Positions 6,153-58,092 of a stretch of DNA of 64,000 nucleotides are shown here, piece by piece (position 1 is the stretch's first letter; each line of letters begins with the position of its first letter). The position numbers and the translations under genes are program-made. The notes below the pieces were generated by a model that saw only the letters and a list, made by a program, of their open reading frames with translations, was not told the origin of the DNA and ran no database searches. The stretch comes from Ferruginibacter sp. (GTDB lineage: Bacteria; Bacteroidota; Bacteroidia; Chitinophagales; Chitinophagaceae). The stretch spans positions 9,774 to 73,773 of the forward strand of contig DAOLIP010000005.1 of assembly GCA_035328475.1 (NCBI GenBank). Direction: 5' to 3'.

Positions 6153-6163
6153 GATTCGTGTAT

Positions 6164-6580: not shown

Positions 6581-6582
6581 GG

Positions 6583-34616: not shown

Positions 34617-35264
34617 CTACACATTAACAATCCCGTTCCTGATCGCATACATCACCAGGCCCACCCTTGTCTTTACATGCAGTTTTTCAAACAGTGCATC
34701 CCGGTACCCATCGATGGTACGGGGGCTGACAAACATCTTATCGGCAATTTCCTTATAAGTAAGTTCGGTACAACTGTATTTTAAAAAATCGGTTTCCCGG
34801 TCGTTGAGTGGTACCAGGCTTTTCAATCCTTCAGTTTCATCATCCATTTTATTAATGGCGTGCATCAGTTTGCCGCTCACCAGGTCGCTGTAGTAAAAGC
34901 CTTTTTCCATTACGGCATTGATGGCTGCTCTTAATTCTGCCGGCTCGCTGTCTTTTAGTATATATCCCCGGGCGCCACACTTGAGCATACGGATGATGGA
35001 GGTTTCGTTGTCGTACATGCTGAGGGCGAGTACTTTGATGCCGGGGTGGTTGGTTTTTAGCCATTGGGTTGCCTGGAAACCATCCATTTCGGGCATGTTG
35101 ATATCCATGAGAACGATGTCGGGGAGATTTACCGGGTCCAGTTTATCCAACAGCTCTTTGCCGTTATCTGCCTCAAACAATATGGTATTACCCAGGCTTT
35201 CCACTAATTGGGCAAGGCCGATGCGGAGGAGAGAGTGATCGTCTGCCAAAACAATGGATGCCAT
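34617..35264 (-). CDS. NarL/LuxR-family response regulator
   Basis: LADDHSLLR, LMDINMPEMDG, GYILK; LNDRETDFL...YKEIADKMFVSPRTIDGYRDALFEKL. Confidence 0.95.
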   Translation of the reverse strand: MASIVLADDHSLLRIGLAQLVESLGNTILFEADNGKELLDKLDPVNLPDIVLMDINMPEMDGFQATQWLKTNHPGIKVLALSMYDNETSIIRMLKCGARGYILKDSEPAELRAAINAVMEKGFYYSDLVSGKLMHAINKMDDETEGLKSLVPLNDRETDFLKYSCTELTYKEIADKMFVSPRTIDGYRDALFEKLHVKTRVGLVMYAIRNGIVNV

Positions 35265-35306
35265 GCTTGCCGGTTTACAAAATACAAGTTGAATATAGTG
35301 TAATTC

Positions 35307-35338
35307 GGGTGAAAAAGGGTGAAAACACGGTAGGAAAA
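35307..35338. promoter_or_regulatory. Helically phased direct repeats, candidate response-regulator sites
   Basis: GGGTGAAAA at 35307 and 35317 (10-bp period), then CGGTAGGAAAA at 35328, in the divergent intergenic region. Confidence 0.45.
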
Positions 35339-35445
35339 TTTTGTTGATGATTATAGCTTAGATATTTCGGGAAAGGTTTGGATTTGTGAGAGAGATGGTT
35401 TAAAATTACTGATAAATATTTTTTAACCTGATAAAACTTTAAATT

Positions 35446-35793
35446 ATGTCTAAAATGCCTGACAAATTCGGTTTTGAAGTCAGAGAAATCATTGACTTGA
35501 AAGAAAGTGGAATAAGTCCTAAAACAATTATGGTAGGTAGTGAGAAAACAATTGTTGAACTAACCACCATGGTTTCTGAGTTTATTTTTGGAAATATAAA
35601 GATAAGTCTCGAGAAAGAGGGAAGCGATGTATTGATAATTGAAGACATGAGTCTTGATTCAAAGGGCTTGAAAGATGCTGGAATTGAAAATAAGATATTG
35701 GCTGTTGGGCCACCCCCAGAAAAAGGGAAACCCGGTGGTCCTGCAGGATCCAACCCTCCACCAAAAGTAATTGTTAAACCAAAGCCAAGGTAG
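35446..35793 (+). CDS. Small hypothetical protein with a Pro/Gly-rich basic C-terminal tail
   Basis: 115 aa, no signal peptide, ends GPPPEKGKPGGPAGSNPPPKVIVKPKPR. Confidence 0.7.
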   Translation: MSKMPDKFGFEVREIIDLKESGISPKTIMVGSEKTIVELTTMVSEFIFGNIKISLEKEGSDVLIIEDMSLDSKGLKDAGIENKILAVGPPPEKGKPGGPAGSNPPPKVIVKPKPR

Positions 35794-35801
35794 CCAAAAC
35801 G

Positions 35802-37241
35802 TCAGGTGTTCTTTTGTCTTGTTTTATCTAAGAATTTCATGCTTGCCGGTATCTTGTAAATAAGACTTAAAAAGTCGGGCCAAAAGCTTAGGTAAGCAAA
35901 AGCATCCCTGTCGTTAGTGCCTACCATATTATAAATCTTGAAAAAGGGATGAGATTCAAGTTCATCTATGTCCGTGGGCATAGTTACTGATAATCCTCTA
36001 AAATTTTTTCTGAATTCACCCTCGCCTGGTTTTAGGGATATTATTGCTGAGCTTATCAACAGGAGAAGCTCAGTTATTAATTTAACTGTAGCAGGAAATT
36101 TCTTAGCAGGAACCTTTTCTGAAAAGCGTTCAAGTATATATAACAGGTCAAAATTACATAGGTCAAAACAGAACCCACGTTCGCTTGGTATTGGGCTTTC
36201 AGGATCATTTCCCCAACTGTTACTTGTGTCATCTTTTTTTGATAATTCACCTGCAACGTCAAGGAAAGCACGCCTTAAATCGTCCGAAGAGATGATGTCA
36301 AGAAGTAACCGGTTGAGAGTTTCAAAGATTTGGTCAAACTTCTTGGTATCAATTGCGGAAATAACTGTCCTGTTAACATATTCTTTTTGAATATCATCAA
36401 AACTTATGTAAGCATTTTTGAATTCTTCAGTAATGTTTTGGCATAGGTTTACCCAGGTGGTTTCATTGTGTAGATAATTTATATTAGTATTGATAAATTC
36501 CAATAAAGCAGCATAATTATATCCAATAAAGGAAATTGGCGTTTGTGGACCGACTATATATTTTATACTCATTGCTAGATCATAAACGGTATCTAATCTC
36601 ATCATATCACAATTCATGAAGAGCAAAAGATCGATTTTATTATTTGGATCATCGGGATTATTGCTCCTGTAACTTATCTTAAGTGCATCATTGAGCTCTG
36701 TATTAGTTAACATATCTGTCAGGTCTACACGTCCCATATCAAAATTACTTTCAGGGTCATCTTGGGAAGAGCTTGCTATTGAATCGAATAAATGCCTTTT
36801 ATTGAAAGTATAATCTGCTGCAAATAGTTTTTCTGTATTAAAAGAAAAACTTCTGTTTTTGAAAAGCCCGACTCCAAAGCCATGCCCCCAGGTAATAAGT
36901 ATCGTATGACTGGATATGTATACAGTTCTGATATATTGAAATAATAAACCCAAAAAAATTGGCTCTGTAAATTTTACATTGCCAAAATCCTGTTGGTTTG
37001 AAATGGTTTGTTCCATTAGTTCTCCATCAGGGGTTAATTCTAATAATCTTAGCCGCCTGTTCTTTGCTTTTTCATCTAAAGAGTATCTCAATATTAGTAT
37101 TCTGTGATCGTCATGAAAACCCTTCTGCAGACCTCTTTTCAGGTGCTCATAGGCTTCCGTTACTATAGGATCATCTTCCCGATCTGAAGGATTATTGATA
37201 AGGAAAATGATATTTAATTTCTTAGTACCTTGTTTAAGCAT
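35802..37241 (-). CDS. Clostripain-family (C11) cysteine peptidase, no signal peptide
   Basis: ILITWGHGFGVG (His-Gly) and DLLLFMNCDM (Cys) match the C11 dyad contexts; GYNY, AIDT, DL and GLSV follow in family order. Confidence 0.82.
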   Translation of the reverse strand: MLKQGTKKLNIIFLINNPSDREDDPIVTEAYEHLKRGLQKGFHDDHRILILRYSLDEKAKNRRLRLLELTPDGELMEQTISNQQDFGNVKFTEPIFLGLLFQYIRTVYISSHTILITWGHGFGVGLFKNRSFSFNTEKLFAADYTFNKRHLFDSIASSSQDDPESNFDMGRVDLTDMLTNTELNDALKISYRSNNPDDPNNKIDLLLFMNCDMMRLDTVYDLAMSIKYIVGPQTPISFIGYNYAALLEFINTNINYLHNETTWVNLCQNITEEFKNAYISFDDIQKEYVNRTVISAIDTKKFDQIFETLNRLLLDIISSDDLRRAFLDVAGELSKKDDTSNSWGNDPESPIPSERGFCFDLCNFDLLYILERFSEKVPAKKFPATVKLITELLLLISSAIISLKPGEGEFRKNFRGLSVTMPTDIDELESHPFFKIYNMVGTNDRDAFAYLSFWPDFLSLIYKIPASMKFLDKTRQKNT

Positions 37242-37253
37242 CGTGTATATTTT

Positions 37254-40229
37254 ATGAAATTAACAATCAGGATATGTGCTTATATTTTTTTGTTGTCTAT
37301 TTTTAATTTTGCAAATGGACAACGATACCAATTGTTTGCGTTTACAGAGAGAGACGGATTAAGCAGTTATAATGTACAAAGTATTTGCCAGGACAAAAAT
37401 GGATACATATGGATTGGTACCCAGGACGGACTTAATAAATTTAATGGTAAAGATTTTACAATATACAACAAAACCACTACTCCTGCTTTAAGTGGGAATG
37501 ATATCAGGTTTGTAAGTTATGATAGTCTTCGTAAATGCATCTGGGTTTGCAGCTCTAACGGTGGGGTAGATGCGGTTGATCCGGTTAGCGACAGTATTGT
37601 TTTCAGGCTAACTATGGACACCTTAAAAAAATACCTTCCCGACCCAAGTGTTCAAAAAATAGAGATTCTCGGTAATGATGTTTTATGTTTTAATACTCCA
37701 AGCGGCCTGCTATTTTACAATTTAAAGGCAAAAAGGGTAATTACAAATGTATTGCAGCCTTTTAGTACGTCCAGCGTACAAACAAGGTTTGTAAATGGAG
37801 TTTTTTTGTCAAATAAGTCTTTTTACACAGTAACAAGTGGATTAGGAATAACAGTATATGAGGATAAAACCTTAAAACTGCTAAGAGAATATCGGTTTGA
37901 TAATGACATTTCCGGGGCTTTAATATATAGCTGTAGTTTTGATGTTTTTTCACGTAGCATTTTTATCTGTTGCAATAAAGGGCTTTTTAAATTTTCTATA
38001 CGGGATAACAAGATTGAAAAGATTACCTCACTAAAAGATGATTTTCTTGTTTATAATATCTGTAGGCAACAATCCGGGAATGTGATACTTGCAACTACTA
38101 AAGGTATATTTAAGGTAAGTGACAGCTTAACTCAACCTGAACCAATCCGGTTTACAAATGAAGTGGGAATTGATAATTGGGATATTAATGTAAATACAGT
38201 ATATATCGGGAAAGACGGTGAAACATGGTATGGCGCAAGAAAAGGGCTTATGTTGCAATTGCAACATGTAAGCCCTTTTGAAAAATACAGCCTTGATTTA
38301 GTATCAAATATCAAATTAAACCATTTGTACTATTTGAAATTTATTGACAATGAAAACGTTTTAGCATGCGACCTTAGTTCAGTAAGTAAGATTAATCTTA
38401 AATCAGGAAAAATTTCTCAACATAAACCTACGGGCTTCTATTATTACTTTTTTGAGGATAACCTTAATAGAAAATTCATAAGTAAGGATAATGGACTTTT
38501 TTTTGGGACAAGATTTGACGACCCTGGATTAATAAATGCCGATAAAATCTGCCCTGAATTGGCCAAGCTTAGCAAGTATAAATTTAATTCTCATCTCATT
38601 TTGAATGATTCTGTGGTTGTTCTGTGTGCCGAAGAAGATAAGGGTGTTTTTGTCTGGAATACAAAATCCAAAAAAATTTACGGGCTGCTTGAAGGGGCTA
38701 ATACTTTTGAAAGCAAATACTGCAATGGAATAGCTAAAATATCTTCTTCAGCATTTTTAATTGTTACTGACAGTGAATTGGCTCTTTATGATATCCACCA
38801 GAAAGAGATAAGGAAGATAAACATACGGAATGAGAGAAATGAAGACCAACGGTTGTTCCTTGATGTTTCAAAAGTAAATAACGAGTATTGGATTGCAAGT
38901 TATGGTTCCGGGATTTTTATACTTGATTCAGCATTTAAACAGACCGGAGTGATATCTGTCCCTCAAGGGCTGTCGAATAATTGTGTTTATAAAATGATCC
39001 AGGATGGTAAAGGGTACGTGTGGGCGACTACGAATTACGGATTGAACAGGATAAATGAATTGACACATAAAGTCAAAAATTATTTCATAAAAGATGGGTT
39101 ACACAGCAATGCATTTGAAGAATTCAGTGCAGATATAAAAGATGGGCTAATAGTTGTCGGCGGACCGAATGGATTAACCAGAATCGACCCTTCTAAGTTA
39201 TATACTTATGCTTCCCCTAAGCTGTGTTTATTTGAGAATTTGGTTTTGGATGATGGACATAAACAAAAAAAAGTGGCATTAATAGGCATAAGTGAAGTAA
39301 TTATTCCGAATGATATATACAAAGTGGATATTAATACAATATCGATAAATTATGACCTCACTTCAAACAGTAATTATTTTTATAAAATAAAAGAATTGAA
39401 TGATAGCTGGTTCTCGTTGGGAAGCAAAAATACTGTTTCCTTACTTGGCCTTAACCCTGGAATTTATCATCTCCAGGTTAAAGTTGCAAATGATGATGGA
39501 AAAGAGAGTCAGCCCAGCGAACTGATATTGAAATTTTTGCCGCGATGGCATCAAACCTGGTGGTTTTATTTATTAATTGCATTAACAGTTGCTGGGATGC
39601 TTTATGCCTTATACCGCTACCGTATAAGCCAGATAAAAAAACAACATGAAATACGCAAAAACATCGCCACCGACCTTCACGACGACCTGGGCAGCACCCT
39701 CAACAGCGTAAAAGTATTTACCAACCTGGCCATCAGCGGCGTAAAGCAGGAAGAAAGCCTGCAGCAGGTAAAAGATAATTTAACCGAAGCAACCATGAGC
39801 CTGCGGGATATGATTTGGGTGCTGGATGATTCGCTGGATACGGTAGATGAATTGATAACCCGCCTTAAGCAATTTGCCATTCCTGTGGCTGCCGCCAGCA
39901 ATATAGAAGCTATTATAAAAGCTGATAGCGATGTAAACAGCCGGCAGCTTACCAAAGAAGAAAAACGTAACCTGTTTTTAATTTGTAAGGAAGCTGTTAA
40001 CAACAGTATTAAATACTCGGGGGGCAGCCGGATAGAAGTTGATATTACAGCCAGTGGAAAAAAAATACAGATCGTTGTGGGCGATAATGGCAAAGGCTTT
40101 AATGTGGAGGAAGTAAAGAAAGGCTATGGATTAAAAAATATGCAGTACCGGGCAGGACAGGTAAAGTATAAAGCGGAACTTGTTTCTTCGCCCGGTAAAG
40201 GAACGCAGGTAATAATAAAACCAGCCTGA
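37254..40229 (+). CDS. Periplasmic beta-propeller/Y_Y_Y sensor with HisKA_3 kinase
   Basis: Signal peptide; DGLSSYNVQSICQDKNGYIWIGTQDGLNKFNG repeats; GIYHLQVK; PRWHQTWWF TM; RKNIATDLHDDLGSTL; DNGKGF; GYGLKNM. Start taken at ATG 37254. Confidence 0.93.
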   Translation: MKLTIRICAYIFLLSIFNFANGQRYQLFAFTERDGLSSYNVQSICQDKNGYIWIGTQDGLNKFNGKDFTIYNKTTTPALSGNDIRFVSYDSLRKCIWVCSSNGGVDAVDPVSDSIVFRLTMDTLKKYLPDPSVQKIEILGNDVLCFNTPSGLLFYNLKAKRVITNVLQPFSTSSVQTRFVNGVFLSNKSFYTVTSGLGITVYEDKTLKLLREYRFDNDISGALIYSCSFDVFSRSIFICCNKGLFKFSIRDNKIEKITSLKDDFLVYNICRQQSGNVILATTKGIFKVSDSLTQPEPIRFTNEVGIDNWDINVNTVYIGKDGETWYGARKGLMLQLQHVSPFEKYSLDLVSNIKLNHLYYLKFIDNENVLACDLSSVSKINLKSGKISQHKPTGFYYYFFEDNLNRKFISKDNGLFFGTRFDDPGLINADKICPELAKLSKYKFNSHLILNDSVVVLCAEEDKGVFVWNTKSKKIYGLLEGANTFESKYCNGIAKISSSAFLIVTDSELALYDIHQKEIRKINIRNERNEDQRLFLDVSKVNNEYWIASYGSGIFILDSAFKQTGVISVPQGLSNNCVYKMIQDGKGYVWATTNYGLNRINELTHKVKNYFIKDGLHSNAFEEFSADIKDGLIVVGGPNGLTRIDPSKLYTYASPKLCLFENLVLDDGHKQKKVALIGISEVIIPNDIYKVDINTISINYDLTSNSNYFYKIKELNDSWFSLGSKNTVSLLGLNPGIYHLQVKVANDDGKESQPSELILKFLPRWHQTWWFYLLIALTVAGMLYALYRYRISQIKKQHEIRKNIATDLHDDLGSTLNSVKVFTNLAISGVKQEESLQQVKDNLTEATMSLRDMIWVLDDSLDTVDELITRLKQFAIPVAAASNIEAIIKADSDVNSRQLTKEEKRNLFLICKEAVNNSIKYSGGSRIEVDITASGKKIQIVVGDNGKGFNVEEVKKGYGLKNMQYRAGQVKYKAELVSSPGKGTQVIIKPA

Positions 40230-40236: not shown

Positions 40237-43200
40237 TTACAATTCCAGGTTATCGGCCATTAATTCGGCCTGCTTTAAAACCGTATCAATTGCTTTTTGC
40301 TGTTTATCGGGTGGGTAACCATATTTGGTAAGCGTTCGTTTTACCAATACCATCAGCTTAGCTCTTGCACTTTCACGGATGGCCCAGTCAATGGTAGTAT
40401 TCGCTTTTACTTTTTCTGCGATCTCCCTGGCAATTAGCCGCAGCTGGTCATCGCCCAAAACCTGCACGGCGCTGTCATTTACTTCCAGTGCATTGTAAAA
40501 TGCAACTTCATTTTGTGTAAGGCCCAGGCGCTCTCCTTCGGCATCAGCTTCTTTAATTTCTTTTGCAATATTGATGAGTTCCTGAATGATTTCGGCTGTG
40601 GTTAATAAATTATTCTGGTAGCGTTTTATAGCCCCTTCCAGCATCTCCAGCAGCTTTTTACTTTTTACCAGGTTTGTTTTGGCCCTTGCTTTTATTTCAT
40701 CATTCAGTATCTTCTTTAATAATTCAAGCGCCAGGTTCTTGTGCTGCATGCCTTTTACTTCCTGCAAAAATTCATCAGAGAGGATAGATATATCCGGTTT
40801 GCTGATACCGGCTGCTTCAAAAATATCTATCACCTTATCGCTGCTTAATGCTTCGTCTACTATTTGTTTAATGGCCGTTTCAATCTGTATGTCCGATCTC
40901 CCCGGCCCGGTTCCCTCAAACTTTGCCAGCCTGGCTTTCATTGCCTGGAAAAAGGCAACTTCGGCTAAATGCGGCTGTACTTCATCTCTTGTAACACATA
41001 GCGATAATGCCTGGCTCAGCAGACTCACTTCACGGACAAACCTCTCTTTGCCTTCCTGCAATCCCATAATATGTTCTTCGGCCTGCAGAATGATGGAGAG
41101 CTTTTCCCTGGAATCTACTTTAAAAAACCTGCGGTAATTAAACTTAAAACTTTTTTCATAGTATGCTTCCGGCTCTTCAACCAATATATCTTTTTGTGTT
41201 TTGCTTTCTTCATTAAACATCTGCTGAATGAGTTCCAGCTTTTCCAGGAACACTTCAACAGCTTTGACAATGTTCTCTGCAGGATCGCCCTTGCCACCGG
41301 CTTCGCCATAAAAGGAAAGCGCTTTTTTAAGATCCATGCCAATGCCGAGGTAATCTACCACCAGTCCGCCGGGCTTATCTTTAAAAACACGGTTAACACG
41401 GGCAATGGCCTGCATCAGGTTGTGGCCACGCATGGGCTTATCTACATACATGGTATTTAAACAGGGGGCATCAAAACCAGTGAGCCACATATCCCTTACA
41501 ATTACAATCTTCAGTTCATCGGCAGGGTCTTTCATCCGGTCTGATAAATCACGGCGCTGTTGTTTGGTAGTGTAGTGTTTTGCAATTTCGGGCCCATCGG
41601 CACTGTTGGTTGTCATTACCGCTTTAATAACACCCTTTGTTATATCATCGCTATGCCACTGCGGCCGCAATGCAATGATCGCTGCGTAAATATCTGCCGC
41701 AATCCGGCGGCTCATTGCTACAATCATAGCCTTGCCTTCAAAAACAGTCTGCCGCTTTTCAAAATGAGTAACAATGTCATTTGCCAGGTTTTTAACCCGG
41801 TCTTTATTACCAACAATGGCTTCCAGTTTTGTCCACTTGGCTTTTGCTTTTTGTTTTTCAGTGATTTCTTCATCCTGTTCCAACTCTTCGTCAAACTCTT
41901 CTATCAGGCGCTTACCATCTTCATCTAAATTTACTTTTGCCAGGCGGCTTTCGTAATAAATTCTTACAGTGGCACCATCGGTTACTGCATCTTTAATATC
42001 GTACCGGTCAATATAATTTCCAAAAACCTGCGGCGTGTTTACATCAGTGCCTTCAATGGGTGTGCCGGTGAAACCGATGTAAGTGGCATTGGGCAGGGCA
42101 TCCCGCATGTACTTGGCAAAGCCATAGGCAATGCGTTTGCCAATCACTTCTTTGGTTGCAGCATCTTTTTCATCAACCAGCCTGGCTTCAAAACCATATT
42201 GTGTGCGGTGAGCTTCATCGGCAATAACCACTATGTTTTTTCTACTGCTCAACTGGTCGTACACCGATTTGTTGCCATCGGGCATAAATTTTTGAATGGT
42301 GGTAAATACAATGCCGCCACTGGCCACCTGCAGCAGTTGTTTTAAATGTTCCCGGCTTTGCGCCTGCACCGGCTCCTGCCGAAGCAACTGAACAGATGCT
42401 GCAAAACTGTCGAACAACTGATCGTCCAGGTCATTTCTATCTGTAATTACCACAATGGTTGGGTTGCTCATTTCGGGTGCAGTAATGAGCTTGCCGGAAT
42501 AAAAGACCATGCTCAAACTTTTACCAGAGCCCTGTGTATGCCAAACCACACCACCCCGTTTGTCGCCATTAACGCCCGATGCATTAATGGAAGACTGCAC
42601 CGCTTTATTTACAGCATAATACTGGTGATAGGCTGCTAGTTTCTTTTCAGTTTGTATTTGTATCAGCCCTGTTTTTGCGTCTTCCTTTTTTGTTTTTTCA
42701 AATACAATAAAATTCCGAACCAGGTCCAACAGGGTAGCAGGTTGCATCATGCCCTGCAATAAAATCTGCAACTGCGGTTTAAACCGGGAAGCTTCTTTAA
42801 TACCATCGGCTGTTTTCCAGGTCATGTAACGGCTAAAGTCTGCCGACACACTGCCGGCCTTGCATTCCAGTCCATCAGAAATAATACAGACGGCATTGTA
42901 CGTAAACAGGCCGGGTATGATGGCTTTGTAGGTTTGCAGTTGTTTGTATGCACTCAGTAAACCGGCATTTTCATCGGCCGCATTTTTAAGTTCTATCACC
43001 ACCAGCGGCAAACCATTTACAAACAGCAGCACATCGGGCCGTTTGTTCTGGTTGTTTTCGATGATGGTATATTGATTAACCACCAGGAACTGGTTGTTGC
43101 CTGTGTTTTCAAAATCGATCAATGCCACTTCATGGCTGCGTTCGTACCCGTTTTGCTGGTACGGGATCTTTACTTTCTCAACCAGCAGCTTGTGAAACTC

Positions 43201-43461
43201 TTCGTTATTGTGCAGCAATACCGGCGAATAGATACGCAATACTTTCTGCACAGCTGCCTCCTGTGCATCGGCCGGTATGTGGGGGTTTATTTTTGCAATG
43301 GCGGTACGTAACCGGTTGGTAAGAATGATCTGCTGGTAATTTTCCCGTTCGCAAAAAAGGCCCTCGGGCGAAAGCTCTTTACCATTGGCATAATCCCATC
43401 CCTGCGATTGCAGCAGCTCAATGGCCGACTGCTCAATGATATTTTCGGTGATGGGTTTCAT
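40237..43461 (-). CDS. hsdR: Type I restriction enzyme R subunit
   Basis: PDVLLFVNGLPLVVIELK nuclease motif, WHTQGSGKS Walker A, IADEAHRTQY, FTGTP, IVRDMWLTGFDAP, QAIARVNR. Confidence 0.97.
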   Translation of the reverse strand: MKPITENIIEQSAIELLQSQGWDYANGKELSPEGLFCERENYQQIILTNRLRTAIAKINPHIPADAQEAAVQKVLRIYSPVLLHNNEEFHKLLVEKVKIPYQQNGYERSHEVALIDFENTGNNQFLVVNQYTIIENNQNKRPDVLLFVNGLPLVVIELKNAADENAGLLSAYKQLQTYKAIIPGLFTYNAVCIISDGLECKAGSVSADFSRYMTWKTADGIKEASRFKPQLQILLQGMMQPATLLDLVRNFIVFEKTKKEDAKTGLIQIQTEKKLAAYHQYYAVNKAVQSSINASGVNGDKRGGVVWHTQGSGKSLSMVFYSGKLITAPEMSNPTIVVITDRNDLDDQLFDSFAASVQLLRQEPVQAQSREHLKQLLQVASGGIVFTTIQKFMPDGNKSVYDQLSSRKNIVVIADEAHRTQYGFEARLVDEKDAATKEVIGKRIAYGFAKYMRDALPNATYIGFTGTPIEGTDVNTPQVFGNYIDRYDIKDAVTDGATVRIYYESRLAKVNLDEDGKRLIEEFDEELEQDEEITEKQKAKAKWTKLEAIVGNKDRVKNLANDIVTHFEKRQTVFEGKAMIVAMSRRIAADIYAAIIALRPQWHSDDITKGVIKAVMTTNSADGPEIAKHYTTKQQRRDLSDRMKDPADELKIVIVRDMWLTGFDAPCLNTMYVDKPMRGHNLMQAIARVNRVFKDKPGGLVVDYLGIGMDLKKALSFYGEAGGKGDPAENIVKAVEVFLEKLELIQQMFNEESKTQKDILVEEPEAYYEKSFKFNYRRFFKVDSREKLSIILQAEEHIMGLQEGKERFVREVSLLSQALSLCVTRDEVQPHLAEVAFFQAMKARLAKFEGTGPGRSDIQIETAIKQIVDEALSSDKVIDIFEAAGISKPDISILSDEFLQEVKGMQHKNLALELLKKILNDEIKARAKTNLVKSKKLLEMLEGAIKRYQNNLLTTAEIIQELINIAKEIKEADAEGERLGLTQNEVAFYNALEVNDSAVQVLGDDQLRLIAREIAEKVKANTTIDWAIRESARAKLMVLVKRTLTKYGYPPDKQQKAIDTVLKQAELMADNLEL

Positions 43462-44322: not shown

Positions 44323-45048
44323 TTATTGATTTACGGTTAATAATAAAGCGTCAGTAATGTTGGTTTTATTTCCATTTTCATCAAGTAAAGTTGCCCTTAT
44401 CTTTATCTGTGTTCCAACAAGATGTGCAAATGCTGAATAGTAGGTACTCAAAATTGAACTATCGCCGGTAGTTGTGATAGGTTGCCTGTATTGCCCGCTT
44501 GCGGGACCGGTTAATACAGAATCCTGAAACAAAACGGTATAACCTTCTGAAACAAATTTACCCGAAGCATTCAATAGCTTTCCTGTTATAAAAACCTCAT
44601 TCAGATGGTTTGATGCAATACCAAATGATGACGTAGACAGTTTTATTGAAAAAGGAATAGATTTTTTGGCAGGTATCGAATCTGAGAGAATAAATTCACC
44701 TACAGGGCTGTTGAATTCAGGCTTTACCGAAACTACAATATTGCCTGGCTTTGTTGAAGCCTTTAAAGTTGCTTTTGCTACCAGGATACCGTTTTCATAT
44801 TCGGCTTTGGCGGTGTATTTATTATTGCCACTTGCAGTAAAAACACCTGATAAAGTTGAAAAAACAACCGTTCTCCTGTCGTCACTGCTTTTATCTGAAA
44901 GTTCAACACTTATATTTACAGTTGACTGCCCGTCTGCCGGAATTTCGGGCTGACTGAATTTAAGATTTTTAATAACCTTATCAACCGGAACTTTTTTACA
45001 ATTGGTTAATGTTATTACGGCCAGTAAAAAAAGAGTTAAGTATCTCAT
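44323..45048 (-). CDS. Lipoprotein with invasin/Big_1-like Ig domains
   Basis: Lipobox LTNC; IPADGQSTVNISV...VVFSTLSGVF...AKATLKASTKPGNIVVSV; start overlaps the upstream stop by 4 nt. Confidence 0.75.
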   Translation of the reverse strand: MRYLTLFLLAVITLTNCKKVPVDKVIKNLKFSQPEIPADGQSTVNISVELSDKSSDDRRTVVFSTLSGVFTASGNNKYTAKAEYENGILVAKATLKASTKPGNIVVSVKPEFNSPVGEFILSDSIPAKKSIPFSIKLSTSSFGIASNHLNEVFITGKLLNASGKFVSEGYTVLFQDSVLTGPASGQYRQPITTTGDSSILSTYYSAFAHLVGTQIKIRATLLDENGNKTNITDALLLTVNQ

Positions 45049-46724
45049 TTGAATAAAATGTTTGTTATATCTTTTAAACTCTGGATAAAATCCATATCAA
45101 CAGATGCAGACAAATAGGCACCGGGAACTACTTTCTTTTCTGAAATCAAAGGATTGTTGGAGGTCCTTTTTAACAATGCTACCCCTGCACTTACTTTAAA
45201 ACCACGGGCAAAACGGTATGCCGGACCTATCAATAATGATGTGCCATTGTAAAAATTATCAAAATCTTTATTCTGCATGGTACCTAGTGTAATGCCTACA
45301 TTGAGGCATAAATGCTGCCATATAGACCATTTGGTTACAATCCCATAGTCTGGCCCATACATATTACCAGACATTTCTTTAACCGAGCCATCGGCGTTTC
45401 GGGAAAGCACTTCTTTGTGGCAGCCGCAATATTTTTTAGGGTTAAGCTTCTTTTTACAGGGAAAATGACCCCTACGGGTATTTTTATCAATAGGCCTGAA
45501 GTAAATGCTGGCGCCAAAATATAGTTTAGGGATGTAAACAGCTTTGTTGGTAACACCCGGTACAATAATATTGGTAATGCCTGCGTCTAGAAACAGCACA
45601 TTTCCTCCGGCGGTCTTTAAATCACTTGATAGTGTGTTTCCTGCAAGATAAAATCCCTCCCTTATTCTTGTATCATCATTAATTTCACTGTTGATTGCAC
45701 CCATTTTTTCACTAAGAAAACTGTAATTAGATTTCAGATTATTTTTTATTGTGTTTACAGCTTTTCTTAAATCATTAACATCAATAGGAAGGGCACCAGG
45801 TGTAATGGTAACTATACCATCGGTTTTTGAAATTACCCTGTCTAAACGTTTAAATACCGAGTCGAAGAAAGCGATGCTCGATTCCATATTCTTTAACCTG
45901 GTTTGCCCGGAGTGTATATTGGTCAATGATTCTTCATCGGTTAAAAAAACACTGTTTATATCTATCAGCCCGTTTTGTATTTGAGGCCACAGTTTGCGTT
46001 TTGATGCTTCCATTAAAATATCGCCATGCATGAAATCGGAAACGGAACGGCTTGTTGCAATGTCAATTGCCCTAACCTCATCTTCGGTAAGGGTGCCTGC
46101 GGTAGCAAATTTTGAAGCATCGGCAATATTGGTATAATGGGTTGCCAGCTTTGCAGTATAAAATTCTTTATAAGCCTCAAAGCTTGTAAAGGCAAACACA
46201 GTTCTGTTATGAATTTTATCAATTAAACTGATTAGTAAAGTATTAAAAGCATTATGGGCTGCAACATCATTTGAAGCCGATATAAGTGAATTGATTTTTA
46301 AAAGCGAATTACGGTTTGCAGGCTGCAGATAGGAGAACACCATTATATCGAAATCTATATTAGGCCGCAGCGGCGGAAAAAATACCTGCAGGGTATCGCT
46401 GTAGGGGCTGAATTTTAACTCCATATCAACAATGGCATCATTCTTTTTCCGCCCATCACAATCAGTGTATTTATTTGTGCAAAGCTCCCTTTTGCCCTGT
46501 TTGTATGCCGCTTCAAAGGCTTCTACTTTTTCAACACTTTTTGATGATATTTTTTCAACAACAAGTGTAAATGAATGGTCAAAAGGTATTGGTTTATCGG
46601 TTTTATGTGTAGCCAGATCATATTTAATTAAGTAATCGGAATGGAACGGTGTTTGGCTTAACAGGGGATGAGTAAAAAATAGGCAGATAATTGAAAGTAA
46701 TATGCTTAAAGTAATTTTATTCAT
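45045..46724 (-). CDS. Secreted hypothetical protein, possibly with a C-terminal outer-membrane beta region
   Basis: Signal peptide; helical middle; alternating beta strands near the C-terminus; Cys-rich inserts. Confidence 0.72.
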   Translation of the reverse strand: MNKITLSILLSIICLFFTHPLLSQTPFHSDYLIKYDLATHKTDKPIPFDHSFTLVVEKISSKSVEKVEAFEAAYKQGKRELCTNKYTDCDGRKKNDAIVDMELKFSPYSDTLQVFFPPLRPNIDFDIMVFSYLQPANRNSLLKINSLISASNDVAAHNAFNTLLISLIDKIHNRTVFAFTSFEAYKEFYTAKLATHYTNIADASKFATAGTLTEDEVRAIDIATSRSVSDFMHGDILMEASKRKLWPQIQNGLIDINSVFLTDEESLTNIHSGQTRLKNMESSIAFFDSVFKRLDRVISKTDGIVTITPGALPIDVNDLRKAVNTIKNNLKSNYSFLSEKMGAINSEINDDTRIREGFYLAGNTLSSDLKTAGGNVLFLDAGITNIIVPGVTNKAVYIPKLYFGASIYFRPIDKNTRRGHFPCKKKLNPKKYCGCHKEVLSRNADGSVKEMSGNMYGPDYGIVTKWSIWQHLCLNVGITLGTMQNKDFDNFYNGTSLLIGPAYRFARGFKVSAGVALLKRTSNNPLISEKKVVPGAYLSASVDMDFIQSLKDITNILFK

Positions 46725-46840: not shown

Positions 46841-47872
46841 TTAAATCACCCTTACCTCCCCGCTCATAAGCTTGGGCAACAGCGTATCCCGCAGTTGGGT
46901 GAGGGTGCGGATTTGAATTTGATTGTAATTTATTTTATTCCAGAATTCTTTTGCCTGAAAATCAAAAGCAAATATTTTTTCTTTTGGGGGAATAATTATT
47001 TCTATAGAGTTTAAAAGCGTTTGGGTTAGCAGCGGATGACTTGATCCCTCTGCCATTGAATTTAAATGCAAACTCTTTAAAAGATAAAACAGAAAATATG
47101 GACAATCATCATGCCTGGGTTTTGTAAGAAGGGCATTATCTGAAACCCATATTTCCCTATTTTCTAAATAGAGGCTTCCGCAATAAGCTCCAACTCTTCC
47201 TATGATGATTGAGACACCGCTGTAATTTGACTTATCCGTAAAACCCAAAATTCCGTTTCCTCCATAAACAGGAATGCTTCCGTTTACAACTTCTTTAGGT
47301 CTCGATTTGCCATTAAATAAAGCGGCAATATCTCCTAGTTTTCCAACCTCCCAACTTTCCTCCACTTCCTCCAGAAACCACTGCCTGAAAAGCGTTTCGG
47401 CTAATTGCTCCAGGGTTTTGTTTTGGCGCTGCAGTAAGTCTATTTTATCATCTAAGCTGCTGAGGATGGAGGCGATTTGGATTTGTTCGGGTTTTTCAGG
47501 GATTGTTACATTTAATTCATGAATGTGGTTTCTATTCAACGTTGGTACAGCACTACCTGCATTAAATTGAGAAAAGTCAAAAGTATTCAGGAAGTAGTAA
47601 ATAAATTTTGGAGAAGAATCTTTAAAATCCTTTATGTACAATACAGTATTGTGAGCCCAATAATCTTTTGAATAAAAGACAGGAGTACCAATATTTCCAC
47701 TTCTCCCTATTGTAACTCCCGGGCCTTTTGTTGTTGCTTTGTTATGAAAACCGATTATTCCATTTGAACCAGCAACAGGGAATGTTCCAATTACCATTTT
47801 GGTTTTTGGTAAATCATGCCCTCTTTGAAAAGTGATAACATCTCCTAGTTTGCATTTTTTCCATTCAGACAT
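46841..47872 (-). CDS. hsdS: Type I restriction enzyme specificity subunit (start probably ATG 47872)
   Basis: Two TRDs (WKKCKLGD..., WEVGKLGD...), EQIQIASILSSLDDKI and LTQLRDTLLPKLMSGE conserved helices. Confidence 0.95.
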   Translation of the reverse strand: MSEWKKCKLGDVITFQRGHDLPKTKMVIGTFPVAGSNGIIGFHNKATTKGPGVTIGRSGNIGTPVFYSKDYWAHNTVLYIKDFKDSSPKFIYYFLNTFDFSQFNAGSAVPTLNRNHIHELNVTIPEKPEQIQIASILSSLDDKIDLLQRQNKTLEQLAETLFRQWFLEEVEESWEVGKLGDIAALFNGKSRPKEVVNGSIPVYGGNGILGFTDKSNYSGVSIIIGRVGAYCGSLYLENREIWVSDNALLTKPRHDDCPYFLFYLLKSLHLNSMAEGSSHPLLTQTLLNSIEIIIPPKEKIFAFDFQAKEFWNKINYNQIQIRTLTQLRDTLLPKLMSGEVRVI

Positions 47873-47879
47873 CAGCTTC

Positions 47880-49562
47880 TCATTTAAAATTAATTTTAGC
47901 AAGGTTATTTTTAATCTGCTTGTTCAAATCATCCTCCTCGGCAATCTGCTTTTCCAGCTCGGTTTTCAATGCGGTAAACCGTTCTTCAAAATTAAAATCA
48001 TCTTCATCATCGGGCAGGCCCACAAAGCGACCGGGTGTAACCACATAGTTTAAGGCGGCTACTTCTGCAATGGGTACGCTTTTGCAAAAGCCCTGTATGT
48101 CTATATAGTCTGAACTGTGATTTGTTTGATTGCTGGGATTGGTATGATTTGTTTCATCTGTGGTTGCAGACTGTTTTAAATCATGCTTATCATGTAAATC
48201 AACAGAATCATTGTTCAGACAATTTTTCCAGTTATGGTAAGTATTGGCAATCCTGGCTATGTCATCATCTGTAAACTCCAGTGTTTTACGGTTAATTAAA
48301 TGACCCAGGTTGCGGGCATCAATAAACAGTATCTCTTTTTTGCGTTGCTGTTTATTGCGGCGCAAAAACCAAAGGCATGCCGGTATTTGTGTATTTAAAA
48401 ATAATTTGGCCGGCAGGTTTACAATGCAATCCAGCAAATCGTTTTCAATTAATGCTTTGCGTATTTCGCCTTCGTTGCTTGTTTTGGTAGTTAAAGAGCC
48501 TTTACTTAAAACAAAACCTGCCTGCCCGTTGGGCGCCAGGTGGTACAAAAAATGTTGTATCCATGCATAGTTGGCATTGCCGGCAGGTGGTATACCGTAT
48601 TGCCAGCGGGCATCTTTCTGCAGCAGTTCGCCGCTCCAGTCGCTGTCGTTAAAGGGCGGGTTGGCAATGATGAAATCGGCTTTCAGGTCTTTGTGAGCAT
48701 CGTTTAAAAAACTGCCTTCGTTGTTCCATTTTACATTGCTGCTGTCGATACCACGTATGGCCAAATTCATTTTTGCCAGGCGCCAGGTGGTTTGGTTGCT
48801 TTCCTGTCCGTAAATACTTATGTGGTCTGCACCCCCTCCAACTCCCCCTGAAGGGGGAGAGTTGCGACCAGCTTTTTTCTTTCGGTAATGATCCTGGTGA
48901 TGCCTAATAAATTTTTCGCTTTGCACAAACATCCCTCCGCTGCCGCAGCAGGGGTCAAACACACGGCCTTCGTAAGGTTCCAGCATTTCTACCAATAGTT
49001 TTACCACGCTGCCGGGGGTATAAAACTGTCCGCCTTTTTTGCCTTCGGCTAAAGCAAACTCGCCGAGAAAATATTCAAACACACGGCCCAGCAGGTCTTT
49101 GCTTTGTGCTTCTTTGGTGCCAAGTGTTGCGGTGCTAACCAGGTCAACCAATCCACCCAGGCTTGCTTTATCTAATTTTTCCTGTGCAAAAACTTTGGGC
49201 AGTACGCCTTTTAGGGATGGGTTGTCTTTTTCAATGGCATCCATGGCATCGTCAATATCCTTACCAATGCTGGGCAGTTTAGCCCGGCCCTGTATCCATT
49301 TCCAGCGGGAGGAAGGGGGCACGTAAAAAACTTTTTCGGCCAGGTATTCATTTTTGTCTTCGGGGTCGGCGCCTTCGCTTTTTTGTGCCAGCAGTTTTTG
49401 ATGCAGCTCTTCAAAAGCATCCGAAATATATTTAAGAAAGATAAGGCCCAGTGCCACGTGTTTGTATTCGGCAGCGTCCATGTTTTTGCGGAGCTTGTCG
49501 GCCGCTTTCCAGAGTTTTTTCTCTAAGGGTTCTTCTGCTTCTGTTTTTTTTGCTTTTGCCAT
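47880..49562 (-). CDS. hsdM: Type I restriction enzyme methyltransferase subunit
   Basis: [36 protein letters not shown] (N6-adenine methyltransferase). Confidence 0.97.
48108..48220. repeat. 113-bp hairpin element with 15-bp imperfect terminal inverted repeats and 9-mer periodic arms, in frame in hsdM
   Basis: GTCTGAACTGTGATT ... AATCATTGTTCAGAC (13/15 complementary); left arm has GATT units, right arm AATC units. Confidence 0.75.
48831..48866. repeat. REP-like palindrome in frame in hsdM
   Basis: CTCCCCC-TGAA-GGGGGAG stem-loop within ACCCCCTCCAACTCCCCCTGAAGGGGGAGAGTTG; encodes [11 protein letters not shown]. Confidence 0.7.
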
Positions 49563-57575: not shown

Positions 57576-57730
57576 TGTATCTTTTTAGAGTGGGGAATGA
57601 ATGCCGTTCGCTAAAATACACATTTCTGTTGTGGTTAAGAGGCCATGGCAGATGGTTCATGATAAATATAGAATCCTCAAGCCCGAAACCTTCTATACCG
57701 TTATTTCACCCTGTTCATTCTCCGTTAATA

Positions 57731-58046: not shown

Positions 58047-58092
58047 CACAACCGTGTTATGAAAACCATTTTTAATTACAAATTCATCAAGT

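Follow-up and report, generated by a model that had tools for sequence, protein, structure and literature searches.

The window analysed here (the whole stretch of DNA, 64 kb in length) contains four adjacent genes whose order, established from open reading frame (ORF) coordinates and Pfam matches, is response regulator (RR, -), a 115-aa protein (+), a C11 protease (-) and a propeller kinase (+). Both the order and the families agree with those given in a preliminary description of this DNA. The other genes nearby comprise an amidohydrolase gene, ligA, ribosomal-protein genes and a restriction-modification (R-M) island. The coordinates of all features are collected in Table 1.

Table 1. Features of the cassette and of its surroundings, in positions of the window.
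Feature	Position	Strand	Basis
NarL/LuxR-type RR, REC + GerE, 215 aa; conserved left flank	34617–35264	-	Pfam
Candidate RR box and partial duplicate	35307–35330	-	Read from sequence
Small-gene promoter and leader, conserved	35364–35445	+	Intergenic comparison
Candidate peptide precursor, 115 aa	35446–35793	+	Convergent small ORF
C11 (clostripain-family) cysteine protease, 479 aa, predicted cytoplasmic	35802–37241	-	Pfam PF03415
Whole kinase gene	37254–40229	+	Pfam Reg_prop, Y_Y_Y, HisKA_3, HATPase_c
Kinase signal peptide and periplasmic beta-propeller/Y_Y_Y sensor; variable part of the gene	37254–39545	+	Pfam
Kinase transmembrane (TM) segment and transmitter; conserved right flank	39546–40229	+	Pfam
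TM helix	from 39552	+	Pfam
HisKA_3	39654–39827	+	Pfam
HATPase_c	39966–40220	+	Pfam
Variable low-GC allelic module: small ORF, C11 gene and sensor-coding part of the kinase	35449–39545	.	
Second, bipartite box copy	57697–57740	+	Strict pattern and relatives
Candidate output genes behind the second box	57840–59358	+	

The RR carries a Response_reg (E = 5.8e-27) and a GerE domain (E = 1.1e-10), and its pairing with a HisKA_3 + HATPase_c kinase is that of the NarL/LuxR class. For the transmitter, the structure matches are DesK and VraS; the NCBIfam models matched in part by this two-component pair are NarL, UhpB, LiaS and similar ones. The sensor consists of Reg_prop repeats (2e-9) and a Y_Y_Y domain (7.9e-8), placed between the signal peptide and the single TM helix, and its profile matches the Bacteroides HTCS periplasmic sensors 4a2l (E = 5e-77) and 3v9f (E = 2e-57). 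Pfam finds no REC or AraC domain fused to the kinase, which is thus not of the hybrid architecture, and inspection of the neighbouring genes revealed no linked polysaccharide-utilisation locus.

The window protease matches Peptidase_C11 (PF03415, E = 2.9e-12) and has the caspase-like fold with His followed by Cys that is a feature of this family, a member of clan CD. The catalytic residues are His120, encoded at 36882–36884, and Cys211, encoded at 36609–36611; besides Met1, they are the sole invariant residues among 24 cassette proteases with a mean identity of 20%. A profile of these 24 proteins matches the C11 structures 6n9j, 6mzo, 9cip and 3uws (E from 1e-19 to 1e-13), with the dyad in register (GHG to WSHGDG, NC to DAC). 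In addition, the top eight Foldseek matches are all C11 enzymes, the query being a model of pLDDT 58.7 in which the long His-Cys loop (residues 120–176) is disordered. The invariance of the dyad at such a low identity favours the prediction that the protease is active. In C11 enzymes, an Asp of the S1 pocket located two residues before the catalytic Cys confers Arg/Lys specificity (Asp177 in PmC11, Asp229 in clostripain; PMC4850288). This residue is absent from the window protease, which has Met209 in its place (FMNC), and only 4 of the 24 cassette proteases have Asp in this column. Therefore, the cleavage after basic residues put forward in the preliminary description cannot be assumed, and a cut after Lys would be a guess drawn from the repeat structure of the tails described below.

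The protease N-terminus has no signal and begins directly with the first beta-strand. Using a crude hydropathy test, not SignalP, we found that the threshold is reached by 2% of 84 cassette proteases versus 80% of the kinase N-termini, and by 2–3% of proteases and small proteins family-wide. At the resolution of this test, the earlier remark that neither protein has a signal peptide extends to the whole family. No exporter is conserved near the cassette. Yet the kinase part that varies lies in the periplasm, although the protease and the small protein are without signal peptide.

The small protein consists of a beta-rich N-terminal part followed by a Pro/Gly/Lys tail, GPPPEKGKPGGPAGSNPPPKVIVKPKPR. 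It has no match in a Pfam search, an exhaustive phmmer search of 1.84 billion representatives returned no more than 4 credible relatives, and its structure model (pLDDT 38.6) is unusable. The tail motif K..P..PAG....P is invariant among the four closest relatives of the window protein; indeed, inside sensor groups no other part of the small protein is as well conserved as its C-terminal motif. Within allele groups its dN/dS ranges from 0.03 to 0.38, while between types the similarity is near zero: within types, the ORF is under purifying selection. Tandem units containing one Lys each occur in 20 of 78 unique tails, compared with 3.1 in shuffled tails; examples are KTQNPKTQNP, KTDHPKTDHP, KVWQMG..KVWQMG and GKLNGSS repeated three times. 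The window tail is Pro-rich and contains neither a tandem repeat nor Trp. Some loci are devoid of a separate small ORF, and there the C11 protein bears a comparable tail. For instance, the C-terminus of the C11 protein of locus L118 is the repeat tail itself, and in L042, L051 and L111 the protein is extended at its C-terminus by a stretch with a short W-G motif.

The base composition changes sharply along the locus. In 300-nt intervals, the GC content is 0.30–0.39 from approximately 35250 to 39600, versus 0.45–0.50 in the RR, and it is 0.43–0.48 at 39450–39900. This trough, the lowest-GC stretch within the window, begins at the small gene and ends within the kinase gene just before the membrane helix. 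Per gene, the GC/GC3 values are 0.474/0.574 for the RR, 0.385/0.310 for the small gene, 0.349/0.310 for the C11 gene, 0.342/0.311 for the kinase sensor and 0.431/0.451 for the kinase TM segment and transmitter. Taken together with the start of the TM helix, the two sets of values place the composition break inside the kinase gene, beside the TM segment, as originally suggested; the reading frame is continuous across it. Since the same trough recurs in orthologous cassettes of other genomes, it is no chance fluctuation. On the other hand, the idea that it marks a recent import into a "host" background does not survive this comparison: all related genomes share the low GC of the cassette as an ancestral trait.

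Conservation was analysed in a set of approximately 170 related loci. The same RR/small gene/C11/kinase order is found in other genomes at the same chromosomal site (ligA, 362-aa gene, amidohydrolase ... rplM-rpsI), and the core order of small gene, C11 gene and sensor is kept in three architectures that differ in the position of the RR. Homologues of the RR and kinase retain the intervening genes: among 98 unique kinases of the family, 96 have a protease ORF of 350 aa or more directly beside them, and the place of the small gene is taken by a convergent small ORF in 86 of 107 loci. Across Chitinophagaceae, the four genes form a conserved two-component cassette; its cultivable carriers include Chitinophaga sp. 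YR627, C. hostae 2R12 and Ferruginibacter sp. SUN106.

Within the cassette, the conservation is very uneven. Comparing the window with L004 and L006, the identity is 78–90% for the flanking genes, 85–89% for the RR (amino acids, syntenic orthologues) and 79–90% for the transmitter, versus 39–44% for the small protein, 39–45% for C11 and 47–58% for the sensor; the identity of the sensor to orthologues spans 47–62%, against 79–90% for the rest of the kinase. Among 18 cassettes, the mean pairwise DNA identity is 0.73–0.85 in the RR and rises again to 0.65–0.84 from approximately 39400. In 28 unique cassettes, the median normalised similarity is 0.81 for both RR and transmitter, 0.23 for the sensor and 0.06 for both C11 and the small protein. 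Mantel correlations link C11 with sensor (0.64), small protein with C11 (0.34), small protein with sensor (0.28) and RR with transmitter (0.70; all p<=0.0005), while that between sensor and transmitter is -0.11 and not significant, though one gene encodes both. Linkage alone can make adjacent genes co-vary. In L015, C11 and sensor have recombined apart.

The boundaries of the variable block are sharp. Over 7331 nt, L003 and L008 share 99.9% identity, which then drops to about 50%; the switch occurs 34 codons before the TM helix, and the same boundary is found in L150/L166 and L015/L032. On the left, the boundary is the precursor start codon: in contigs of another allele, compared at 80% likeness, the match ends exactly at 35448 and the alignment resumes at 39546. 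In the sludge metagenome runs X3 and X4, the flank (99–99.9% identical) is covered about 30-fold and the window module 2- to 5-fold; different alleles coexist in one natural population. Many alleles of the input half (35449–39545) exist, low in GC and extremely divergent, and recombination within the conserved flanks exchanges them en bloc, while the RR, the RR promoter region and the kinase membrane helix with the transmitter stay conserved. These similarities, correlations and breakpoints reveal conserved flanks, a co-varying middle and, in both GC and phylogeny, a breakpoint inside the kinase. Both comparative predictions by which the preliminary description could have been refuted, the retained genes and the intra-kinase breakpoint, have thus turned out as it proposed. 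Given the retained genes and the intra-kinase breakpoints, the agr-like swappable specificity module proposed there is well supported as a statement about evolution and architecture.

The region between RR and small gene had been described as containing phased GGGTGAAAA repeats. Two copies are indeed present, 10 nt apart, at 35307 and 35317, but only the second, GGGTGAAAACACGG at 35317–35330, is kept in relatives, and 35307–35316 is a window-specific partial duplicate of it. The box is oriented towards the RR gene, where it reads CCGTGTTTTCACCC. Among 33 unique loci of the RR(-) type, 23 have the box approximately 50 nt before the RR start (background 0.0013 per 80 nt), and strict matches number only two in the window. 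By its position only, we infer that the box belongs to the regulator of the cassette. The promoter and leader of the small gene follow the pattern GAAAGGTTTGG..TTTGTG.GAGAGATG.TTTAAAATTA ... TTTTTAACCTGATAAAAC.TTAAATT, obtained from the intergenic regions of about 30 loci whose small genes are unrelated; the conservation reaches the ATG.

The box also recurs in front of downstream genes. The second copy, ACCGTTATTTCACCC-N10-CCGTTAATATACCCTTGA, is located in relatives approximately 10 nt after the kinase stop codon and has been displaced from the kinase in the window by a 17.4-kb insertion. Of 128 unique loci, 13 have a strict box no further than 80 nt from the kinase stop; the expectation is about 0.2. 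Behind the second box, the window encodes a 68-aa LuxR-type HTH protein (57840–58046) and a 421-aa secreted protein with Laminin_G_3 and Por_Secre_tail domains, i.e., T9SS-sorted (58093–59358), which are candidate output genes of the cassette. In L029, a homologous 423-aa gene is situated directly 3′ of kinase and box.

The explanation that we favour, with modest confidence, is that of a ComQXPA/agr-like pherotype cassette in Bacteroidota, whose input half is swapped as a block. The tandem Lys-unit tails, the protease-tail fusions and the co-variation suggest that the protease may cut the small protein into a ligand of the propeller. The small protein would be a precursor, recognised by the cytoplasmic C11 protease, which would release at least one short peptide from its C-terminal tail. 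The peptide would then exit the cell via an unlinked route and bind its cognate receptor, the periplasmic propeller sensor encoded by the same allele, whereupon the HisKA_3 kinase would phosphorylate the NarL-type regulator. The latter would bind the CCGTnTTTTCACCC box in its own promoter region, which diverges from that of the precursor, thereby closing a feedback loop, and also before the neighbouring secreted-protein genes. Each allele would constitute a private "pherotype". Several observations weigh against this reading: the missing signal peptides and exporter, the rarity of the S1 Asp, the Pro-rich tail of the window protein, the Bacteroides homologues of the sensor, and the fact that linkage by itself can produce co-variation. 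More tentatively, Chitinophagaceae may have widespread strain-specific peptide pheromones, in which C11 cuts the tail of a leaderless precursor, a propeller kinase reads the product and the block is swapped. In such a system, the peptides would often be present in several copies per tail. The carrier family comprises soil and sludge bacteria. If true, pherotype-type peptide signalling would be described for the first time in Bacteroidota, with new roles for C11 proteases and for propeller/Y_Y_Y sensors, and the block swap between near-identical strains would be the signature of strain-specific peptide "dialects". Such dialects are so far mainly known from Gram-positive bacteria.

Although agr had been named as the closest analogue, by domain families ComQXPA of Bacillus subtilis is closer. 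The ComQXPA locus is not known to contain a dedicated exporter, and its precursor, like that of the cassette, is without signal peptide. Both systems consist of four adjacent genes with a HisKA_3 + HATPase_c kinase and a REC + GerE regulator of approximately 214 aa. In both, the precursor, the maturation enzyme and the N-terminal sensor are polymorphic and the cytoplasmic kinase part and the regulator conserved, and the pherotypes into which ComQXPA strains fall can be likened to the allele types of the cassette. The domain assignments of ComP (HisKA_3 + HATPase_c) and ComA (REC + GerE), the variability of ComX and the ComP N-terminus and the conservation of the cytoplasmic part have been reported (PMC4008528). 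However, the cassette enzyme is a C11 cysteine protease instead of the ComQ isoprenyl transferase. Pfam finds no polyprenyl synthase at the cassette, which lacks the combination of ComQ with a modified-Trp ComX and requires no Trp-prenylation motif. Furthermore, its sensor is a soluble periplasmic double-propeller/Y_Y_Y domain rather than a polytopic membrane domain, its genes lie on alternating strands and not in a single operon, and its host is a Gram-negative member of Bacteroidota.

Staphylococcal agr (AgrBDCA) likewise combines a hypervariable block of processing enzyme, precursor and receptor sensor part with a conserved transmitter and regulator, and has recombination boundaries within the receptor gene. 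There, the precursor is processed on its C-terminal side by a cysteine endopeptidase. Nevertheless, the cassette resembles agr in evolutionary pattern only: Pfam detects no AgrB-type membrane peptidase, AgrD, HPK10 receptor or LytTR regulator at the cassette, the tails are without a conserved Cys for a thiolactone, and the protease is soluble and predicted cytoplasmic. As for the protease itself, the secreted C11 enzymes of gut Bacteroidales (PmC11, B. thetaiotaomicron 6n9j/6nag, fragipain) and clostripain have the same fold and His/Cys dyad. Known C11 enzymes autoprocess in the long loop between His and Cys, and residues 1–22 of PmC11 are a signal peptide (PMC4850288). The cassette enzymes also have a long His-Cys loop; unlike the known ones, which are made with signal peptides and work outside the cytoplasm, they are without such a peptide and without the conserved S1 Asp, and are paired with a kinase (96/98) and a small ORF (86/107 loci).

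The Bacteroides hybrid two-component sensors (4a2l/4a2m, 3v9f) share with the cassette kinase the Reg_prop propellers and Y_Y_Y domain followed by one TM helix, but the cassette kinase is not hybrid, has HisKA_3 instead of HisKA, is not accompanied by polysaccharide-utilisation genes nearby and has a sensor that is allelic within species. The propeller sensors of Bacteroides hybrid kinases bind glycans and are not known to bind peptides. Finally, Phr pentapeptides, PapR, NprX and SHP of Firmicutes are linear peptides of 5–8 residues derived from the C-terminal ends of small precursors, as is proposed for the cassette. After re-import, these signals bind RRNPP receptors in the cytoplasm, whereas the presumed receptor of the cassette is a periplasmic kinase domain and its protease is predicted to be cytoplasmic. 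For SHP, export proceeds through an unlinked general transporter, namely PptAB (PMC7564271).

Alternatively, the sensor could detect an external lineage-specific ligand, e.g., a glycan, with C11 and the small protein as intracellular output or feedback and no peptide export. The small protein might then be, for example, a protease-controlled regulator, and the three parts would diverge by niche adaptation. We regard this as rather unlikely, even though the sensor profile matches the Bacteroides hybrid-kinase domains 4a2l and 3v9f, protease and small protein look cytoplasmic with no exporter nearby, and the conserved promoter and box adjoin the small gene, consistent with the latter being a target. 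Indeed, no SusC/SusD or glycoside hydrolase genes stand alongside the cassette, and an external ligand leaves unexplained both the tandem tail units that track the sensor groups and the unrelated sensors in near-identical strains of one habitat.

Less probable still is a conflict module (toxin/antitoxin, effector/immunity or anti-phage) made of protease and small protein and kept diverse by balancing selection, the sensor being divergent by linkage only; the sensor-coding DNA lies between recombination-competent flanks. Caspase-like proteases do occur in defence systems, a type I R-M island lies next to the window locus, the divergence pattern resembles that of immunity loci, and a recombination that separates C11 from the sensor is tolerated in L015. 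However, PADLOC-DB v2 gives zero matches for RR, small protein, C11 and kinase, there is no plasmid match, and the cassette is syntenic beside ribosomal-protein genes across genera, the R-M island being a window-specific insertion. Moreover, given the 96/98 association with the kinase, linkage to an unrelated pair would not persist across three architectures. As to the low-GC stretch, its recent acquisition as a foreign island, inserted between a regulator and a kinase remnant that are both native, with a possibly spurious small ORF, would agree with a trough of 0.30–0.38 in a background of 0.43–0.47, but is highly improbable: the same trough, genes and site are present in all related genomes examined, the kinase frame is unbroken and the small ORF is subject to purifying selection within types.

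The cassette is a conserved signalling unit. Its input half recombines as an allelic block of high polymorphism, and several alleles coexist in one population; of this modular, recombining architecture we are practically certain. The four-ORF order in the window, i.e., response regulator (RR), 115-aa protein, C11 protease and propeller kinase with alternating polarity, is borne out by the ORFs and their family matches (see table). The four strand-alternating genes are closely spaced: the convergent stop codons of the small gene and the C11 gene are 8 nt apart (35794-35801), the divergent start codons of the C11 and kinase genes 12 nt (37242-37253), and the spacing in relatives is similarly tight (13-90 nt). 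The promoters of the protease and kinase genes must lie inside each other's coding sequence. Bacteroidota promoters differ from the sigma-70 consensus.

Cassette genes and other features of the window
Feature	Position	Strand	Remarks
NarL/LuxR-type response regulator (RR)	34617-35264	-	left gene of cassette
Small protein, 115 aa	35446-35793	+	tail GPPPEKGKPGGPAGSNPPPKVIVKPKPR; without any family match
Peptidase_C11 protein	35802-37241	-	family match
Histidine kinase, 991 aa	37254-40229	+	signal peptide, Reg_prop/Y_Y_Y sensor, one TM helix, HisKA_3, HATPase_c
hsdR, type I R-M	40237-43461		behind cassette
hsdS, type I R-M	46841-47902		behind cassette
hsdM, type I R-M	47880-49562		behind cassette
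Giant ORF, 2963 aa	10458-19349
Giant ORF, 1949 aa	19378-25227		DUF6531/RHS/YD-shell domains (precomputed Pfam)

A word-index homologue search returned two relatives for the C11 query and none for the small protein. The kinase gave a graded series of homologues, which were used as a route to the genomic context, and RR, small ORF, C11 and kinase were arranged alike in every context inspected. Two MAGs have the cassette at the same site as the window (ligA, 362-aa gene, amidohydrolase, cassette), and rplM-rpsI come next after it in the related loci L006 and L010. Even the 1.7-2.1 kb contigs with the two detectable protease homologues contain the last part of a small ORF, with a related tail, and the first part of the kinase. 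Scans with a kinase alignment of species-representative genomes and metagenomes added 160 loci, hosted by Ferruginibacter, Chitinophaga, Niastella, Puia, Paraflavitalea, Foetidibacter, Sediminibacterium and one Cytophagales genome. Cultivable strains among the carriers are Chitinophaga sp. YR627 (L067), C. hostae 2R12 (L073), C. rhizophila B61 (L074), Ferruginibacter sp. SUN106 (L038), Niastella sp. OAS944 (L054) and Paraflavitalea speifideaquila BL16E (L063). Where the upstream DNA sufficed, the start codon of a unique full-length kinase gene is abutted by a divergent ORF of 350 aa or longer in 96/98 cases, and 80 of these 96 ORFs are recognised by a purpose-built protease HMM; a Pfam scan of ten loci without an HMM-called protease at first pass gave four clear, two borderline and four undetectable C11 domains. 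An ORF of 60-400 aa converges on the protease stop codon in 86/107 loci, so that small gene and protease are indeed kept beside homologous kinases, as the preliminary description had supposed.

Three architectures can be distinguished by the place of the RR gene: the Ferruginibacter type has it upstream and on the minus strand, the Chitinophaga/Niastella/Puia type has it on the plus strand immediately before the small gene, and the third type, from sequence reading only, seems to have it downstream of the kinase. The core of small ORF, protease and sensor is contiguous in all of them. PADLOC gave no match for any of the four cassette genes, tblastn of plasmids no match to the cassette, and none of the RNA runs was found to contain the locus. 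The cassette is conserved and chromosomal. One subtype (L042, L053, L115) has extra genes between RR and C11 gene, encoding a sensor-less HisKA_3 kinase (~274 aa), a polytopic membrane protein (~210-224 aa) and a secreted protein.

The expected combination of conserved flanks and a co-varying middle was confirmed across relatives by similarities and Mantel tests. Amino acid identity of the window to L004 and L006, respectively, is 90% and 84% for the 362-aa gene, 84% and 78% for the amidohydrolase, 89% and 85% for the RR, and 79% and 90% for the TM and transmitter part of the kinase, but only 39% and 44% for the small protein, 45% and 39% for C11, and 58% and 47% for the sensor. When 18 loci were aligned as DNA, mean pairwise identity came to 0.73-0.85 in the RR gene and 0.39-0.52 in the intergenic region, fell to 0.1-0.3 over the small gene (from its start codon) and the protease gene, reached 0.2-0.55 in the sensor, and was back to 0.65-0.84 from window position ~39400. 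For 28 unique complete cassettes, median normalised similarity is 0.81 for both RR and transmitter, 0.23 for the sensor, and 0.06 for both C11 and small protein. The contrast can be extreme: window and L026 compare at 0.97 (RR), 0.89 (transmitter), 0.16 (sensor), 0.07 (C11) and 0.07 (small protein), and L015 and L032 at 0.95, 0.94, 0.23, 0.04 and 0.07. The Mantel correlations are significant (all p<=0.0005) within the module, by which we mean the small ORF, the C11 gene and the sensor-coding part of the kinase gene (C11~sensor r=0.64, small~C11 0.34, small~sensor 0.28), and between RR and transmitter (0.70). Sensor and transmitter are not significantly correlated (r=-0.11), nor are RR and sensor (r=-0.19); thus, the two halves of a single kinase gene have unrelated histories. 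Partial correlations, all weak (0.04-0.21), at most hint that the precursor N-terminal part goes with the protease, and the tail with protease and sensor.

A breakpoint inside the kinase gene was sought in relatives and found in three pairs. L003 (identical to L091) and L008, from two JGI metagenomes, show 99.9% identity along the 7331 nt between kinase codon ~734 and the end of the contig; before this switch, which lies 34 codons ahead of the TM helix, identity in 100-column steps is 36-67% across sensor and protease N-terminus. L150 and L166 have a module type in common, at 86.6% identity, and switch at kinase codon ~750, the final 623 nt of the kinase gene being 99.8% identical. L015 and L032 are 91% identical over 4 kb from kinase codon ~746. 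In the third architecture, L114 is 92-94% identical to L141/L118/L150 up to the precursor-gene start, and 85-89% identical again from the TM-proximal kinase region. An apparent recombinant within the variable module was also observed: in L015 (small gene 2588-2986, C11 3017-4474, kinase 4454-7465) the precursor N-terminal part and the protease resemble L010, and the sensor is 0.80 similar to those of L029 and L066.

The window's variable region is present in activated-sludge metagenomes. Depth is even (8-10x) in run X1. In X3 and X4 the flank of amidohydrolase and RR (99-99.9% identical) reaches ~30x against 2-5x for 35369-39640, and in X2 12x against 2-4x. The majority of cells in this population, given the depths of ~30x and 2-5x, carry something else in the module slot. 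On the abundant RR contig, differences from the window build up from ~35190 and the alignment ends in the intergenic region. The edges of the slot are given by contigs of 4.1-4.2 kb (80% likeness) in X6 and X7, whose match ends at 35448, the small-gene ATG, and resumes at 39546, where the Trp of LPxW, which immediately precedes the TM helix, is encoded; ahead of that point their unmatched sequence codes for KELVLIFLPK, a typical sensor end. These edges place the module at 35449-39545. Its boundaries are therefore sharp, namely the small-gene start codon on the left and a point just before the kinase TM helix on the right. A whole-module deletion, with a joint skipping from 35448 to 39546, was rejected: reads over 39500-39760 show the 4.1-4.2 kb contig to carry another, unalignable allele with the same boundaries. 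All contigs returned by exact-protein look-ups of the window RR and amidohydrolase carry the allele of the window itself. One X3/X4 contig matches the window from 35315, the start of a conserved box, rightwards, and has unrelated sequence to the left (...CATTATCAAGGGTACTTTGACCGTTTTTTG); the window module may also be present with a different left flank.

The module also differs in composition. GC content in the window drops from 0.45-0.50 to 0.30-0.38 at ~35250 and recovers at ~39500-39600. The composition break suspected within the kinase gene was confirmed: GC at third codon positions is 0.57 for the RR gene, 0.31 for each of small gene, protease gene and sensor part of the kinase gene, and 0.45 for the TM and transmitter part. 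Ferruginibacter-type orthologous cassettes repeat this (sensor 0.32-0.35, transmitter 0.39-0.43, RR 0.41-0.47), and low GC is therefore an old property of the module; the same recurrence rules it out as a mark of recent import. In the distant L010 the difference is only marginal (0.42 vs 0.44). As a speculation, alleles too divergent to recombine might miss GC-biased repair.

The 24 cassette proteases aligned have 20% mean column identity without a conserved 7-mer, and only Met1, His120 (GHG) and Cys211 (NC) are invariant. Single-sequence phmmer of the C11 protein against the PDB gave no match, and the 24-sequence profile matched solved C11 enzymes with the dyad aligned (E 1e-19 to 1e-13); the top structure matches of the window C11 model, of modest pLDDT (58.7), were all C11. 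Unlike PmC11, which has a signal peptide (PMC4850288), the cassette proteases are without one. The S1 Asp two residues before the Cys is not conserved (Met in the window protein, Asp in 4/24), and specificity for basic residues cannot be assumed. In some loci there is no separate small ORF. The L118 protease, 1083-2858(-), ends in a repeat tail (..NFSIARGAGGNKTGAGGNKTGAG.., with GAGGNKT twice), and those of L042, 5743-7365(-), L051, 8358-9932(-), and L111, 8323-9939(-), have a ~55-aa C-terminal W-G extension ending in NWGKIVWE, RWGRFRKIN or KWGNFVALNS. Our reading is that these are protease-precursor fusions, which would link protease and tail as enzyme and substrate.

Exhaustive phmmer found only four credible relatives of the small protein among 1.84 billion representatives. 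The small ORF is nevertheless a real gene, given its conserved position and a dN/dS of 0.03-0.38 within allele groups; between groups the sequences are unrelated. AlphaFold of the small protein alone gave a pLDDT of 38.6, too low for a statement on its fold. The recurring feature is a C-terminal tail with Lys and then a short motif, in many cases as a tandem repeat: KTQNPKTQNP (three copies in L043), KTDHPKTDHP, KVWQMG-x3-KVWQMG, KTRWGKKRWG in Chitinophaga, SGKVPPNSGKVPPNSG, three copies of GKLNGSS, and, in many tails, a single K[VI]PxxG ending. Strictly tested, 20/78 unique tails contain tandem units; shuffled tails gave 3.1 on average and 9 at most. The window type (window, L004, L006, L008) has a Pro-rich tail with an invariant K..P..PAG....P and no repeat. 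Among small proteins of one sensor group, conservation is highest in the tail. With a similarity of 0.80-0.86, the sensors of L015, L029 and L066 are each paired with a KTQN[PAG] tail; the KTQNP tail of L015 agrees with its sensor group, although its protease and precursor N-terminal part are L010-like.

The phased repeats reported between RR and small gene correspond to two copies of GGGTGAAAA, at 35307 and 35317. In ~30 loci with unrelated small genes this region keeps three blocks, namely AAAAAGGGTGAAAACACGGT, which reads CCGTGTTTTCACCC towards the RR gene, GAAAGGTTTGG.TTTGTG.GAGAGATG.TTTAAAATTA, and TTTTTAACCTGATAAAAC.TTAAATT-ATG. The box CCGTGTTTTCACCC (35317-35330 in the window) is found ~50 nt before the RR start codon in 23/33 unique loci of the RR(-) type and in 0/19 of the RR(+) type. 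With a strict pattern, it also occurs at most 80 nt after the kinase stop in 13/128 unique loci (~0.2 expected), reads towards the downstream genes, is often bipartite (ACCGTTTTTTCACCC-N10-CCGTTAATATACCCTTGA), and precedes genes encoding diverse secreted proteins. Judged by position and conservation only, this CCGTnTTTTCACCC box is likely the binding site of the cassette regulator, which would serve autoregulation and local outputs.

Peptide pheromone systems with strain-specific dialects are textbook knowledge for Firmicutes, where ComQXPA and agr are known for the same pattern of a polymorphic input half and a conserved rest. The transmitter and regulator of the cassette belong to the same domain families as ComP/ComA (PMC4008528). 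Compared with those systems, a cytoplasmic C11 enzyme, a propeller/Y_Y_Y receptor, a Gram-negative envelope and repeat-unit tails would be new in this role. A producer-receptor pair appears to be the most economical mechanism. The small protein would be the precursor and the C11 enzyme its maturation protease; the product peptide released by cleavage would be exported across the inner membrane and bind the cognate periplasmic propeller receptor, and the cassette regulator would act at the box. On balance, we lean slightly towards such peptide pherotypes.

The main difficulty of the peptide mechanism is topology: as had been remarked at the outset, protease and small protein carry no signal peptide and look cytoplasmic, and no linked exporter is found at the cassette. 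Precedents exist for leaderless signal peptides with unlinked or unidentified exporters, as an analogy and not as evidence. Alternatively, the kinase might sense an external ligand, protease and small protein being an intracellular device, which we consider rather unlikely, or the module might serve in conflict with the sensor as a hitch-hiker, which seems quite improbable; both account less well for the match of tails to sensors, for the fusions and for the association of protease and kinase in 96/98 loci. A full-text literature search, of incomplete coverage and thus weak as evidence, returned neither a cassette of this kind nor any account of Bacteroidota peptide pherotypes. Were the peptide mechanism true, it would offer a testable handle on kin discrimination and cell-cell signalling in dominants of soil, rhizosphere and activated-sludge flocs, a function for many orphan cytoplasmic C11 proteases and for propeller/Y_Y_Y kinases unlinked to glycan use, and dozens of natural, presumably orthogonal peptide-receptor pairs with a common transmitter and regulator. 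Whatever the ligand, a sharp recombination boundary in the kinase gene and coexisting unrelated sensor alleles amount to balancing-type diversity at a signalling locus, and the mosaic kinase gene is a signature that can be searched for elsewhere.

Strict box matches in the window are exactly two, at 35317 and 57698, the second being bipartite and followed by genes for a 68-aa LuxR-type HTH protein and a 421-aa LamG protein with a T9SS sorting domain, and by rplM, rpsI and rpsB. Because a homologous 423-aa gene directly follows kinase and box in L029, the window from 40230 to ~57690 is a 17.4-kb insertion that separates the cassette kinase from its ancestral downstream genes, and it looks like a defence or variable island. 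Three uncharacterised genes are embedded in its type I R-M system, and DUF3575, a PLD-like 549-aa protein, an FRG-domain protein, an Amidase_2+SH3 protein and others are also encoded. A gene pair (241/242 aa and 559 aa) lies inside the R-M operon at 44323-46724; a pair likened to it by size and order alone is directly behind the kinase, without hsdR, in L003 (4293-6697) and L008 (7001-9405). Finally, the smaller of the two giant ORFs is a candidate RHS-type polymorphic toxin.
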